Shown here one piece after another: positions 1,171 to 61,266 of a DNA stretch of 64,000 bases. Below the pieces are notes generated by a model. That model did not search any database. It was not told the DNA's origin and saw nothing but the letters and a program-made list of their open reading frames with translations. The DNA lies in the NCBI RefSeq assembly GCF_056712565.1, contig NZ_CM160072.1; one strand, 5' to 3'. The position numbers and the translations under genes were made by a program. Each line of letters opens with the position of its first letter. The first letter of the stretch is position 1.

Positions 1171-1200
1171 GCCTGATGCGCTACGCTTATCAGGCCTACA
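1171..1200. repeat. REP (repetitive extragenic palindromic) element
   Basis: GCCTGATGCGCTACGCTTATCAGGCCTACA consensus-like palindrome between srlD and gutM; a 9-bp-stem hairpin at 1132-1156 precedes it. Confidence 0.8.
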
Positions 1201-5085: not shown

Positions 5086-6525
5086 ATGTCTATTGTGGTG
5101 AAAAATAACATTCATTGGGTTGGTCAACGTGACTGGGAAGTGCGTGATTTTCACGGTACAGAATATAAAACGCTGCGCGGCAGCAGCTACAACAGCTACC
5201 TCATCCGCGAAGAAAAAAACGTGCTGATCGACACCGTCGACCATAAATTCAGCCGCGAATTTGTGCAGAACCTGCGTAATGAAATCGATCTGGCGGATAT
5301 CGATTACATCGTAATTAACCATGCTGAAGAGGACCACGCCGGGGCGCTGACCGAACTGATGGCACAAATTCCCGATACGCCGATCTACTGTACTGCCAAC
5401 GCTATCGACTCGATAAATGGTCATCACCATCATCCGGAGTGGAATTTTAATGTAGTGAAAACTGGCGACACGCTGGATATCGGCAACGGCAAACAACTCA
5501 TTTTTGTCGAAACGCCAATGCTGCACTGGCCGGACAGCATGATGACTTACCTGACAGGCGACGCGGTGCTGTTCAGTAACGATGCTTTCGGTCAGCACTA
5601 CTGCGACGAGCATCTGTTCAACGATGAAGTGGATCAGACTGAGCTTTTCGAGCAGTGCCAGCGTTACTACGCCAATATCCTGACGCCGTTCAGCCGCCTG
5701 GTAACGCCGAAAATTACCGAGATCCTGGGCTTTAACTTGCCAGTCGATATGATAGCGACCTCTCACGGCGTGGTATGGCGCGATAACCCGACGCAAATTG
5801 TCGAGCTGTACCTGAAATGGGCGGCGGATTATCAGGAAGACAGAATCACCATTGTCTACGACACCATGTCGAATAACACCCGCATGATGGCTGACGCTAT
5901 CGCCCAGGGGATTGCGGAAACCGACCCACGCGTGGCGGTGAAAATTTTCAACGTCGCCCGAAGCGATAAAAACGAAATCCTGACCAATGTCTTCCGCTCA
6001 AAAGGCGTACTGGTCGGCACTTCTACGATGAATAATGTGATGATGCCGAAAATCGCCGGGCTGGTGGAGGAGATGACCGGATTACGCTTCCGTAACAAAC
6101 GCGCCAGCGCTTTCGGCTCTCACGGCTGGAGCGGCGGTGCGGTGGATCGTCTTTCCACGCGCCTGCAGGATGCGGGTTTCGAAATGTCGCTTAGCCTGAA
6201 AGCCAAATGGCGACCAGACCAGGACGCTCTGGAGTTATGTCGTGAACACGGTCGCGAAATCGCCCGTCAGTGGGCGCTCGCGCCGCTGCCACAGAGCACG
6301 GTGAATACGGTGGTTGAAGAAGAAACCTCTGCCGCCACGACGGCTGACCTCGGCCCACGGATGCAATGCAGCGTCTGCCAGTGGATTTACGATCCGGCAA
6401 AAGGCGAGCCAATGCAGGACGTTGCGCCAGGAACGCCGTGGAGTGAAGTCCCGGATAACTTCCTGTGCCCGGAATGCTCTCTCGGCAAAGACGTCTTTGA
6501 CGAACTGGCATCGGAGGCAAAATGA
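5086..6525 (+). CDS. norV: Anaerobic nitric oxide reductase flavorubredoxin
   Basis: 479-aa ORF with metallo-beta-lactamase-like di-iron domain, flavodoxin domain and C-terminal rubredoxin Cys pairs (CSVC...CPEC); matches recalled NorV. Confidence 0.94.
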
Positions 6526-7655: not shown

Positions 7656-7674
7656 GCGAGCTACAGTGCCCCAA

Positions 7675-7855
7675 ATGTCGGATGCGGCGCTGACGCGTCT
7701 TATCCGACCTACAGGGAACGCATGTGTTGATCACATAATACGTTTATGTCGCATCCTGCACTGTCCCAAAATGTCGGATGCGACGCTGGCGCGTCTTATC
7801 CGACCTGCGGGGATGAATATGTAGGCCGGATAAGGCGTTCACGCCGCATCCGGCA
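7675..7855. repeat. BIME: cluster of three REP elements between convergent norW and hypF
   Basis: Three copies of the ATGTCGGATGCG...CGTCTTATCCGACCT / GCCGGATAAGGCG REP-type palindrome at ~7675-7713, 7771-7810 and 7820-7855. Confidence 0.85.
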
Positions 7856-7878
7856 ATGGTGTCCAAATGCAGCACGTT

Positions 7879-10131: not shown

Positions 10132-10283
10132 TGAGTTATTCCCGCCATCATGAATTGCGTAACCCGCCCAGCCGGACACGACAGCGTCGCATCCGGCAGT
10201 CACAGGTCGGCGATACTGCCCGCTTCGTATTCTACGAATATTTCCGGGAATTCCTTTGATACCAGAACAGTTCTGTAAGATTT

Positions 10284-15128: not shown

Positions 15129-15192
15129 GCCGGATGCGGCGTGAACGCCTTATCCGGCCTACAAGGCCCGATAAGCGTTGCGCATCGGGCAA
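15129..15192. repeat. REP element pair downstream of ascB
   Basis: GCCGGATGCGGCGTGAACGCCTTATCCGGCCTACA followed by GGCCCGATAAGCGTTGCGCATCGGGCAA; REP-type palindromes. Confidence 0.8.
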
Positions 15193-15217
15193 TCTTGGGT
15201 TTGGCATCAGTCAAAAA

Positions 15218-15637
15218 TCAAAGAAACCATTCCGGCTTAACGCCAAATCGGGCTGAAAGTGCCTTAATGTGGGATATCGTCAGGGAACGTTGTCCAGATA
15301 AAATCTGACTGACCAGGGATTTAGAGCCGATTTCGTTCTTCAAATCCGCATAGGTCAGATTATGTTGATCAATCAGCGTACGAAGTAACGCCACGCCAAC
15401 CGGCATTGCTGCAACGGCTTTGTCGAACTCTGCAAACTTTTCGTTATTGTTTTCATATTCTGCAATGCGGCTCGCCAGAAAGTCGATAAGTGGATTGGTA
15501 TCATCTTCTTCAATCAAATATTCGACCAGTTCCAGTGCTTCACGATAATCATCTTCTGAGTCACTGCCTCCCAGAAAGGGGACTGCATTGACCAGTTCTC
15601 TTGTTGCTTTAACAGCGCGTGCAGCATTAGCAGTCAT
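15218..15637 (-). CDS. HigA-family antitoxin-like protein with C-terminal XRE-type HTH
   Basis: 139-aa ORF; C-terminal HTH (EIGSKSLVSQILSGQRSLTISHIKALSARFGV) and acidic helical N-domain resemble recalled E. coli HigA (YgjM) at roughly half identity by eye. Lies in a segment between ascB and hycI that I do not recall in K-12. Confidence 0.75.
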   Translation of the reverse strand: MTANAARAVKATRELVNAVPFLGGSDSEDDYREALELVEYLIEEDDTNPLIDFLASRIAEYENNNEKFAEFDKAVAAMPVGVALLRTLIDQHNLTYADLKNEIGSKSLVSQILSGQRSLTISHIKALSARFGVKPEWFL

Positions 15638-15662
15638 TCTTTGTTCTCTCTGTAGTATCGTG

Positions 15663-15848
15663 TCAGACGCTCACTTTTCTAAAATGCCATGTTTGCTCGG
15701 CATCATAAGGCATGGTCAGGAGAGGTTTCAGCACCCGCTTTTGCGCATATTCGCCGTCACTCATTGGCAGATATTCGGTAAAGCTGGTGGCCTGTGCAGG
15801 CAGCACTAAGCTCAATAAAAAAGCGCACATCCCTGTTCTGATGTTCAA
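15663..15848 (-). CDS. Hypothetical small protein with Sec-type signal peptide, co-oriented just upstream of the HigA-like gene
   Basis: 61 codons from TTG (55 from an internal ATG at 15830); predicted signal peptide with AQA cleavage motif; stop lies 25 nt before the HigA-like ATG. No similarity to HigB/RelE recognised. Coding status uncertain. Confidence 0.3.
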   Translation of the reverse strand: MNIRTGMCAFLLSLVLPAQATSFTEYLPMSDGEYAQKRVLKPLLTMPYDAEQTWHFRKVSV

Positions 15849-15872
15849 TTCCCTGAATTCCCTGATGGAGAA

Positions 15873-16343: not shown

Positions 16344-16746
16344 GCAGTCTCCTCACCATCAAATAGATGGCGTTTTCCTGATGAATATCATGCAGCATAC
16401 TTAACAGCATTGTACTCCATTCCTTCTGCTGCGAAGTTTGCGCTGCCCGGGCTTTATCGAATGCGTTGGCCAGCATCGGCACATGGTTAATGTCGATGAC
16501 GATCTCACCATATTTCGGCACGCCTTCCATTTTGCGGCGGGCTTCGCTGCCCGCCTCCAGAGTGGCAATCCATGCCAGATAGTCATCCCACGGGCAGGTA
16601 AGCGCCGCTTCCAGGCAATCGATAACCCCAAGGTGGTGACCAATCGCCAGGCTGTAATAGACCACCTGCTGCGCCTCGGCGGGCGTAGCATCGTTCTCAT
16701 CAATGAATTTACGGCTCAGTTGACTGAACACCACCTTTTCACTCAT
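16336..16746 (-). CDS. hycH: Formate hydrogenlyase maturation protein
   Basis: 136-aa ORF, length and sequence match recalled HycH; overlaps hycI start. Confidence 0.9.
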
Positions 16747-29716: not shown

Positions 29717-29760
29717 CAGATGTGGTTATACTCGATCAACATTCAATGAAAGGAGGCAGT

Positions 29761-30189
29761 ATGGCAGTTTCAGCAAGAAATCAATTAACCGGAACAGTTA
29801 GCGCAGTAGCAATGGGCGCGGTGAATGATGAAGTAGAACTGACGCTGGCAGGTGGTGCAAAGCTGGTGGCAATTGTGACTCACAGCAGCCAGCAAGCGCT
29901 GGGTCTGGCGAAAGGGAAAGAAGCGATTGCCCTGATTAAAGCCCCGTGGGTCACGCTGGCAACGGAAGACTGTGGACTGAAATTCTCTGCTCGCAACCAG
30001 TTTGCTGGCAGCGTGTCGACAATCACCGAAGGCGCAGTGAACGCCACTGTCCATATCAAAACGGATGCGGGTTTTGAAATTGTGGCAGTGGTAACAAATG
30101 AAAGTCAGGATGAAATGAAACTCACCACTGGCTCGCGCGTTATTGCATTGATCAAAGCATCAGCCATCCTGATTGCCACCAAAGCGTAA
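29761..30189 (+). CDS. Two-domain Mop/TOBE molbindin-like protein (putative molybdate/tungstate-binding)
   Basis: Start at MAVSARNQLTG, 8 nt downstream of an AAGGAGG Shine-Dalgarno; two tandem ~70-aa repeats each beginning SARNQ(L/F)(T/A)G(T/S)V, characteristic of TOBE/Mop domains. Not recalled between fhlA and ygbA in K-12. Confidence 0.7.
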   Translation: MAVSARNQLTGTVSAVAMGAVNDEVELTLAGGAKLVAIVTHSSQQALGLAKGKEAIALIKAPWVTLATEDCGLKFSARNQFAGSVSTITEGAVNATVHIKTDAGFEIVAVVTNESQDEMKLTTGSRVIALIKASAILIATKA

Positions 30190-30227
30190 GCGCCGTATTT
30201 GCCGGAGAGTATGGCTCTCCGGCAGAT

Positions 30228-33524: not shown

Positions 33525-34181
33525 ATGCCATCTACACGCTACCAAAAAATCAACGCCCATCACTATCGCCATATATGGACCGTTGGTGATATTCATGGTG
33601 ACTATCAATTATTACAATCCCGCTTACATCAACTCTCTTTTTGCCCTGAAACCGACTTACTTATTTCGGTAGGCGATAACATCGATCGTGGGCCCGAGAG
33701 TCTTAACGTGCTGCGCCTGTTAAACCAGCCCTGGTTTATCTCCGTCAAAGGCAACCACGAAGCGATGGCGCTTGATGCATTCGAAACTGGCGATGGAAAT
33801 ATGTGGCTTGCCAGCGGTGGTGACTGGTTTTTCGATTTAAATGATTCAGAGCAACAAGAGGCAATAGATCTGTTGCTGAAATTCCATCACCTTCCACATA
33901 TTATTGAAATCACTAACGACACCATAAAATATGTCATCGCACATGCAGATTATCCGGGGAAGGAGTATCAGTTTGGCAAAGAAATAGCGGAGAACGAATT
34001 ACTCTGGCCTGTTGATCGTGTGCAGAAATCACTTAATAGCGAATTACAAAAAATAAACGGTGCCGACTTCTTTATATTTGGTCATATGATGTTTGATAAC
34101 ATTCAGACGTTCGCTAACCAGATTTATATAGATACCGGATCGCCGAAAAGCGGGCGGCTGTCATTTTATAAAATAAAGTAG
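33525..34181 (+). CDS. pphB: Serine/threonine protein phosphatase 2
   Basis: 218-aa ORF with calcineurin-like phosphoesterase motifs (GDIHG, GDNIDRG, GNHE). Confidence 0.92.
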   Translation: MPSTRYQKINAHHYRHIWTVGDIHGDYQLLQSRLHQLSFCPETDLLISVGDNIDRGPESLNVLRLLNQPWFISVKGNHEAMALDAFETGDGNMWLASGGDWFFDLNDSEQQEAIDLLLKFHHLPHIIEITNDTIKYVIAHADYPGKEYQFGKEIAENELLWPVDRVQKSLNSELQKINGADFFIFGHMMFDNIQTFANQIYIDTGSPKSGRLSFYKIK

Positions 34182-53428: not shown

Positions 53429-53527
53429 TGGGTTTGAAATGATTACTCCCTTGCCTGCAGGAAATCAATGCCACCAGAAACAGAGTATAAAAAAGGGTGC
53501 AGGAGACCAAACCATCACAATTCAGTA

Positions 53528-53546
53528 CGCGGGGTTTTACCCCGCG
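53528..53546. terminator. GC-rich stem-loop at the 3' end of the hok-like gene
   Basis: CGCGGGG-TTTTA-CCCCGCG (7-bp GC stem) 6 nt beyond the hok-like stop on the minus strand and ~100 nt downstream of iap on the plus strand; no U-tract in either orientation. Confidence 0.55.
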
Positions 53547-53552
53547 TGGTGG

Positions 53553-53705
53553 CTACTTCTTCGATTCGTAAGCGAGAACTGCCTTAAACTCCATACCACG
53601 TTCTCTGATACTCAACTCACACAACGAGTCGCCTACCATCAACGTGAATCCCAGTACTGTACAACACAGTACGATGATTGCCACAAGGGCATATTTTGTC
53701 AGCAT
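53553..53705 (-). CDS. Hok/Gef-family type I toxin (HokE-like small membrane peptide)
   Basis: 50-codon [53 protein letters not shown]: hydrophobic N-terminal helix, conserved Cys in SLCEL, C-terminal AYE motif; GGAGG Shine-Dalgarno 7 nt upstream; GC-rich hairpin just 3' of the stop. Close by eye to recalled chromosomal HokE. Confidence 0.8.
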
Positions 53706-53912
53706 GTCTTGCCTCCCTGCAAAGAAGAGACTAACATCCGAATTGCTTAGGTTCGAACGTAGGCCTCAGGTTGATAGAAATATCGCCTGGGGCTTTTGTC
53801 CATCTGGAACCTCGCGAATGCTTAACGCCAGACAGCCTCAAGCACCCAATGCCATTCTATACCTGTTAATTCTCCCTGCGACGTTCTCGTTTAAATGCCG
53901 GAATGCTGCTCG

Positions 53913-54724: not shown

Positions 54725-54761
54725 TGCCTGATGCAACGCTTACACATCTTATCAGGCCTAC
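54725..54761. repeat. REP element between cysI and cysH
   Basis: GCCTGATGCAACGCTTACACATCTTATCAGGCCTACA in the 73-bp cysI-cysH spacer. Confidence 0.8.
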
Positions 54762-61196: not shown

Positions 61197-61266
61197 TTGT
61201 AGGCTGCACGCCACATCCGACATTCAGCGCCTGATGCGACGCTTGACGCGTCTTATCAGGCCTACA
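61197..61266. repeat. REP elements between convergent ygcP and ygcQ
   Basis: TGTAGGCTGCACGCCACATCCGACAT and GCCTGATGCGACGCTTGACGCGTCTTATCAGGCCTACA. Confidence 0.8.

Follow-up and report, generated by a model that had tools for sequence, protein, structure and literature searches.

The spacer between the convergent genes norW and hypF holds a row of palindromes, and two questions arise from it: to which family these palindromes belong, and whether they, together with similar palindromes elsewhere in the window (the whole stretch of 64,000 nucleotides analyzed here), act as permissive insertion points for accessory islets. Based on the evidence presented below, the palindromes would be, with a probability of about 95%, canonical E. 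coli REP elements (or PU) of types Y, Z1, and Z2, some of them combined into BIMEs. The elements themselves are real, ordinary, and long known, having been published before. As for the second question, the idea of insertion points had already been published; it is right in part, as regards IS elements and a single junction.

The window, a segment of an E. coli phylogroup-B2 chromosome, extends from srlB to ygcS and is collinear with UTI89 (NC_007946.1), except for a 9-bp indel near 15866 and an IS1 in the pphB gene of UTI89; pphB is intact in the window (33669-33858), and the UTI89 copy holds IS1A. Gene annotation was transferred from UTI89 to the window coordinates, and by this annotation the gene names of the original prediction are right. 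The norW-hypF junction is 100% identical to the B2 chromosomes UTI89, S88, and ATCC 11775, the last of which is the 100% top match in five of the six junction searches. Population counts refer to 5,426 complete genomes.

Results

Family assignment of the palindromes

The Y, Z1, and Z2 consensus sequences, used as published in PMC11208160, where they are quoted, were run as probes by blastn-short. They match exactly the five sites flagged earlier, and no other strong match is found in the 64-kb window. Identity reaches 29/29 to Z2, 34/34 to Y (in two copies), and 86 to 100% to Z1. Moreover, the core pattern GATGCG-N5-19-CTTATC occurs seven times in the window for 0.18 expected, a number reached in none of 100 shuffles, and the REP tail ATCNGGCCTAC occurs five times for 0.09 expected. 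With these consensus matches and this enrichment, the presence of REP-type palindromes at all five named sites, as originally proposed, is borne out.

The elements are imperfect palindromes of about 35 nt with a conserved CTAC tail. An alignment of 12 copies, taken from the window and from K-12, contains 17 invariant columns, and in the stem, double changes that keep the pairing are observed at 3 of 10 pairs, with one broken cell only. The stem variants GCCGGAT, GTCGGAT, GCCTGAT, and GCCCGAT are each accompanied by the matching 3′ arm, these being compensatory changes. A covariance model made from this alignment, with which both strands were scanned with filters off, finds again all eight window copies from which it was built, and beyond these training copies it adds one decayed REP (42193-42234) and a borderline relic (10171-10202). 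The tally for the window is then eight intact REPs, one truncated and one decayed copy, the diverged Y-like spacer described below, and the borderline relic. Also, the norW-hypF query finds matches in 5425 of the 5426 complete genomes, at 38 or more places in the median genome. High copy number, consensus identity, enrichment, and compensatory stems are combined in these palindromes, which would therefore be members of a dispersed repeat family.

A REP-like stretch noted by eye at the left edge of the ygbN-rpoS islet (40262-40290) was dropped, having no covariance-model match at E ≤ 10. Rfam contains no REP family, and sok is the sole Rfam match of the window; REP features are likewise absent from the current K-12 RefSeq annotation. 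Within the window, no tnpA(REP)/RAYT gene is present.

Anatomy of the norW-hypF element

The norW-hypF spacer (7656-7878, 223 nt) is composed of two direct Z1 copies, a diverged Y-like spacer, and one inverted Y. The first Z1 REP (7676-7713, plus strand, 58.1 bits) starts 20 nt past the norW stop and has the stem GTCGGAT/ATCCGAC. The second (7772-7809, plus strand, 56.1 bits) is a direct repeat of the first, the two copies lying 96 nt apart from start to start and forming a 49-nt direct repeat of 90% identity. It is joined tail to tail, through a 10-nt linker (7810-7819), to the inverted Y REP (7820-7855, minus strand, 60.7 bits), which matches the Y consensus at 34/34 positions (7821-7854) and ends 23 nt before the hypF stop. 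Between the two Z1 copies lies the Y-like spacer (7714-7771, minus strand, 58 nt), which aligns with the position of a Y and now forms a palindrome of its own.

In K-12, the same junction holds a single unit composed of Z1, a 13-nt linker, and an inverted Y. Read from the sequence, the window arrangement is a tandem duplication, of about 96 bp, of this single Z1-Y unit, in which the Y of the upstream unit has apparently decayed. The Y-like palindrome (7728-7762) is a marginal match to the covariance model (E = 2.4), and its probable derivation from Y comes from the alignment with K-12, O111, and Ec-U10, not from the model scan. By eye, the spacer is about 77% identical to Y in the better-kept non-B2 copies, the window copy being more decayed. 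It is locus-specific and not a dispersed linker motif: a 60-nt query finds this B2-form segment at one place per genome, in 1055 of the 5,426 complete genomes, including UTI89, 536, and ST131.

For the whole 223-nt spacer, a folding energy of −106 kcal/mol (z = −7.2) is obtained, and a scan of it for intrinsic terminators finds no terminator-like site. A candidate IHF site (GATCAACACATGC, minus strand) was rejected because it mismatches the consensus and reads GACCAA in other lineages.

Other REP sites and their position relative to genes

A Z2 REP lies between srlD and gutM (1171-1199, plus strand, 29/29 to Z2, 51.9 bits), inside the srl/gut operon and 45 nt past the srlD stop, at a junction conserved in 5398 of 5426 genomes. 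Upstream of it, just past the srlD stop, a strong palindrome outside the REP family (GCGGAGATCTTTTAAGGATCTCCGC, 1132-1156) is observed, which may be an attenuator or a terminator inside the operon. After ascB, a pair begins 8 nt past the stop codon and consists of a Y (15129-15162, plus strand, 34/34, 62.2 bits) and an inverted Z2 (15164-15192, minus strand, 44.9 bits). The linker between them is 1 nt in the window (15162-15164) and 17 nt, TGTCGCACGAACCATGA, in K-12 (compared locus 16459-16476) and EC1722-1, a difference that is a linker-motif polymorphism within a BIME-2.

In the cysJIH operon, 16 nt from the cysI stop, a diverged Z1-like REP (54726-54761, plus strand, 86% to Z1, 50.9 bits) carries three substitutions that weaken the inner stem in the window copy; the cysH-cysI junction is conserved in 5423 of 5425 genomes. 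The convergent genes ygcP and ygcQ enclose a truncated Y (61197-61222, minus strand) and an intact Z1 (61229-61265, plus strand, 55.4 bits), and this junction is conserved in 4812 of 5426 genomes. The decayed Z1-like REP that the covariance scan added (42193-42234, plus strand, 18.8 bits, E = 1.1e-3, about 80% to Z1 by eye) is absent from the earlier list and lies directly behind the stop of the flavodoxin gene (o183), within the B2-specific ygbN-rpoS islet. The borderline relic, GCCGGATGCGACGCTGTCGTGTCCGGC (10171-10202, minus strand, E = 0.088), is found in the hydN-hypF spacer and is not secure.

The original prediction also stated that REPs mark most of the convergent or operon-end junctions, and this does not hold when the junctions are counted. 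Among 33 spacers, each of at least 30 bp or convergent, REPs are found in 3 of 9 convergent ones (norW/hypF, ascB/HTH gene, and ygcP/ygcQ; with the decayed copy before rpoS, the number rises to 4), in 2 of 16 gaps between genes of the same strand (srlD-gutM and cysI-cysH, both within operons and not at operon ends), and in none of the 8 divergent ones. Taking the 9 convergent and the 16 same-strand gaps together, 25 gaps hold a gene 3′ end, and 5 of them carry a REP; one convergent pair among the 25 overlaps, so that 24 are real gaps. The enrichment at convergent junctions is not significant in this one window (Fisher p = 0.11); a further Fisher test on placement gives p = 0.30, also not significant, a single window being too small for placement statistics. 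All the REPs are extragenic, and every spacer with a REP contains one gene 3′ end or more. Such placement, beside 3′ ends and outside promoter gaps, is a rule already known for REPs, and an earlier report is said to have dealt with REPs within 15 nt of stop codons.

Accessory islets and insertions at REP junctions

A comparison with K-12 reveals four indel islets in the window: ascB-hycI (15211-15851), fhlA-ygbA (29718-30198, with a TOBE-domain gene), ygbN-rpoS (40219-42323), and iap-cysH (53440-53702, vs 9.7 kb of CRISPR-Cas in K-12). It had been proposed that three of them, ascB-hycI, ygbN-rpoS, and iap-cysH, lie next to or near REP-bearing junctions, such junctions being preferred entry points for accessory islets. 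The first part of this proposal stands for ascB-hycI, which is the sole islet adjoining a BIME, its left edge (15210/15211) being 18 nt from the Z2 REP. It is not supported for ygbN-rpoS and iap-cysH, since neither the consensus probes nor the covariance scan find an intact REP at their edges or at those of fhlA-ygbA.

The ascB-hycI junction is found in at least five alleles, which favors islet entry beside the BIME. In Ecol_276 (ST131-like; 5094-6050 of its locus), only 83 nt at the 3′ end of ascB and half of the Y REP remain from a deletion that removed the ascGFB operon, and a 594-bp insert extends from within the loop of the ascB Y REP to the Z2 REP. The insert encodes a 145-aa protein, for which no match is found in Pfam. 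The window allele is a cut-down form of a higBA-type toxin-antitoxin allele, with 1032 bp missing in comparison with EC1722-1 (compared locus 735-2397), where higB, an HTH antitoxin, and a 253-aa ORF are present; the remnant in the window consists of an orphan HTH_3 antitoxin-like gene (15218-15637) and a 61-aa chimeric ORF.

On the other hand, the remaining islets, three of the four that differ from K-12, speak against REPs as entry points. The conserved flanks of the ygbN-rpoS islet hold no REP, the only one being the decayed copy inside the islet, and its right edge (about 42314-42324), which is common to all other alleles, lies next to the rpoS terminator, where there is no REP. The B2 form of this islet is present in 1039 genomes and corresponds to the published B2-specific "pattern III" with o347 and o183 (PMC4209514), genes for which Pfam matches were obtained. 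In the neighboring ygbN (38867-40230), a 1-bp deletion at 40032 in comparison with UTI89 (AAATCCGATT to AAATCGATT) shifts the frame about 66 codons before the end, so that either the gene is a pseudogene in the source strain or the change is a sequencing error.

At iap-cysH, the difference from K-12 is that the window is without CRISPR-Cas, and the closest REP lies past cysH, at a distance of about 1 kb. The state without CRISPR-Cas and with hok/sok is the common one, hok having been lost in K-12 (PMC12736100). The window holds beside cysH an intact hok (50 aa, HOK_GEF) and the sok RNA (Rfam RF01794, 112 bits) at 53553-53847, whereas K-12 keeps only sokX. Also, strain 7.1994/NIST0056 has both cas3 and hok; therefore, the loss of hok and the presence of CRISPR-Cas are separate events. 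The fhlA-ygbA islet, which was missing from the earlier islet list and has no REP at either edge, encodes a 142-aa protein with two TOBE domains of the molybdate-binding type, and K-12 has 6 bp in its place.

REPs have been known as targets of REP-specific IS elements since 1999-2003, and two such cases are observed in other strains at the REPs described here. In strain 103, the loop of the ygcP-ygcQ Z1 REP contains a copy of IS1397, accompanied by a duplication of TTGA. In strain 7.1994/NIST0056, IS621 is inserted in the cysH-cysI REP, at AGGCCT^AC of the tail. The natural target of IS621 is ATCAGGCCTAC (PMC11208160), and this 11-nt sequence, with its CT core, is found exactly at 1189-1199, 54751-54761, and 61255-61265. 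These REPs are thus real, sequence-specific targets for IS1397 and IS621 in other strains, and the two cases are natural examples of landing in these exact REPs.

As a general argument, REPs have already been described as "safe" insertion points between convergent genes by Tobes and Pareja in 2006 (PMC1525189), which lends some weight to REP/BIME junctions as preferred entry points for islets, as do the ascB-hycI alleles, the Ecol_276 insert that begins inside a REP loop, and the IS insertions in two other REPs of the window. However, the srlD-gutM and cysH-cysI junctions carry REPs and are invariant in more than 99% of the genomes, and norW-hypF varies in REP-unit number only, no gene-sized insertion being seen there in a spread sample of genomes. 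Moreover, the IS insertions are rare, IS621 at cysH-cysI being found in about 1 of 5,425 genomes. Finally, the one islet of four at a REP-bearing gap is what chance would give, because 5 of the 25 3′-end gaps carry REPs. We consider that preferential islet entry at these junctions is unlikely. The broader notion of permissive insertion points is sustained by the IS elements at ygcP-ygcQ and cysH-cysI and by ascB-hycI, and not by the other islets or by the invariant srlD-gutM and cysH-cysI junctions.

In the window, a REP is neither required nor enough to place an islet. At ygbN-rpoS and iap-cysH, the two junctions that are most polymorphic, the edges carry no REP, which is a warning against taking REP proximity as the cause of islet placement. 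A narrower reading is that the ascB BIME was the recombination substrate behind the multi-allelic ascB-hycI hotspot, with its higBA variants, its 594-bp cassette, and the loss of ascGFB in an ST131-like lineage, which we regard as a rather doubtful proposal. If it were true, REP loops could capture gene cassettes other than IS elements, perhaps via IS1397-like or RAYT-mediated events that leave no transposase behind.

Variation of the norW-hypF element in the population

The alleles of the norW-hypF junction were read from an evenly spaced sample of the match ranking over the 5,426 complete genomes, plus three extracted loci, and they contain 0, 1, 2, or 4 units. The one-unit form, with a spacer of 127 bp, is that of K-12, BL21, and O157 and accounts for about half of the genomes. 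Two units, in a spacer of 223 to 225 bp (223 in the window and 225 in O111), are present in B2 and, separately, in O111 and others, amounting to about a third of the genomes, and the form with four units (419 bp, Ec-U10) is rare. The fourth form, with a spacer of 77 bp and no REP (18KM2445), is found in 733 genomes. The element is dispensable at this locus because about 13.5% of the genomes have no REP there. In the REP-less allele (18KM2445, 357-433 of its locus), a different GC-rich hairpin, CCCTCGCCCAAAGGGCGAGGG, is observed, together with only a relic of the Y half, and hypF is annotated 12 nt shorter.

This variation in unit number is of the kind already described for BIME-2 and atypical BIMEs, for which the BIME classes and the differences in unit number between strains have been reported (PMC3333891). 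As a locus of variable copy number, the norW-hypF BIME could serve as a lineage marker.

An adaptive role has also to be weighed, in which the duplicated array would be a B2-specific regulator, tuning for example the nitric oxide reductase or HypF, and not a product of neutral drift. The two-unit form is fixed in the sampled B2 lineages (UTI89, 536, and ST131), with 95 to 100% identity over 1055 genomes, and the Y-like spacer is conserved among B2, O111, and Ec-U10, both of which would agree with such a role. Nevertheless, descent alone would give the same lineage-wide presence, and other lineages have 0, 1, 2, or 4 units, so an adaptive array is very improbable.

Discussion

The assignment of the palindromes to the REP family leaves practically no room for ordinary gene-specific terminators or chance GC-rich hairpins outside any repeat family, a reading that agrees with their stable folding and their position at gene 3′ ends and that the results already refute, given the 29/29 and 34/34 consensus identities, the core pattern found 7 times vs 0.18 expected, the dozens of matches in each genome, the hairpins without a U-tract behind them, and the recognition of the palindromes by REP-specific IS elements.

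Regarding how the norW-hypF array may have arisen, published work on the family suggests that the direct Z1 copies would recombine unequally or slip, units being gained and lost in this way, or, alternatively, that the number of units would be changed by the REP-associated transposase TnpA(REP)/RAYT. By the same work, the norW and hypF mRNAs would carry the transcribed hairpins at their 3′ ends and, because the spacer holds no intrinsic terminator, these hairpins would impede 3′ exonucleases and halt transcription in part. REP DNA may also bind gyrase and Pol I. In this regard, mRNA stabilization, attenuation, and protein binding have been described in the literature for other REPs and would apply to the window copies by analogy. 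For IS621, the REP site ATCAGGCCT^AC is chosen by its bridge RNA. Beyond the annotation of a B2 E. coli segment, the consequence of these assignments is small.

When compared with the E. coli REP/PU described by Higgins and Gilson, the window elements are alike in sequence, length, imperfect palindrome, CTAC tail, extragenic site at 3′ ends, and high copy number, and no essential difference is observed, with complete identity to the Y consensus in two copies and to the Z2 consensus in one. With respect to Z1, the norW-hypF copies use the stem GTCGGAT/ATCCGAC, whereas the consensus has GCCTGAT/ATCAGGC, and the cysI-cysH and 42193 copies are decayed relative to the family. The insertions in other strains also agree with published specificities, that of IS1397 (IS3 family) in strain 103 with the REP loop and that of IS621 (IS110 family, bridge-RNA guided) in 7.1994/NIST0056 with ATCAGGCCT^AC; neither element is in the window itself, and such insertions are rare in the population.

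REPs alternate in orientation, as in BIMEs, at 7772-7809 (+)/7820-7855 (−), 15129-15162 (+)/15164-15192 (−), and 61197-61222 (−)/61229-61265 (+). Among these, only the ascB element (15129-15192), and not norW-hypF, has the Y plus Z2 composition with a short linker of BIME-2, the gyrase-binding class: a Y is followed by an inverted Z2 after 1 nt (17 nt in K-12). BIME-2 elements often occur in tandem multiples, whereas the ascB element is a single unit in the window.

On the other hand, BIME-1 (RIB/RIP) elements are single-copy and have a long L linker with an IHF site (PMC3333891). The norW-hypF element resembles them in its REP composition, Z1 plus Y, but differs in its linker of 10 to 13 nt (10 in the intact unit of the window and 13 in K-12), without the long L motif, in its locus-specific 58-nt spacer, in its tandem copies, and in having no conserved IHF consensus, the GATCAA-like stretch being unconserved elsewhere. 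With Z1 plus Y, a short linker, and tandem copies, norW-hypF fits an atypical BIME and not BIME-1. Like the atypical BIMEs, which are BIME-1/BIME-2 chimeras (PMC3333891), it mixes parts of both classes, having Z1 and an inverted Y as in BIME-1 and, as in BIME-2, a short linker and tandem units whose number differs by strain. It departs from them in one feature, which is that the Y of the upstream unit or units has diverged into a locus-specific palindrome.
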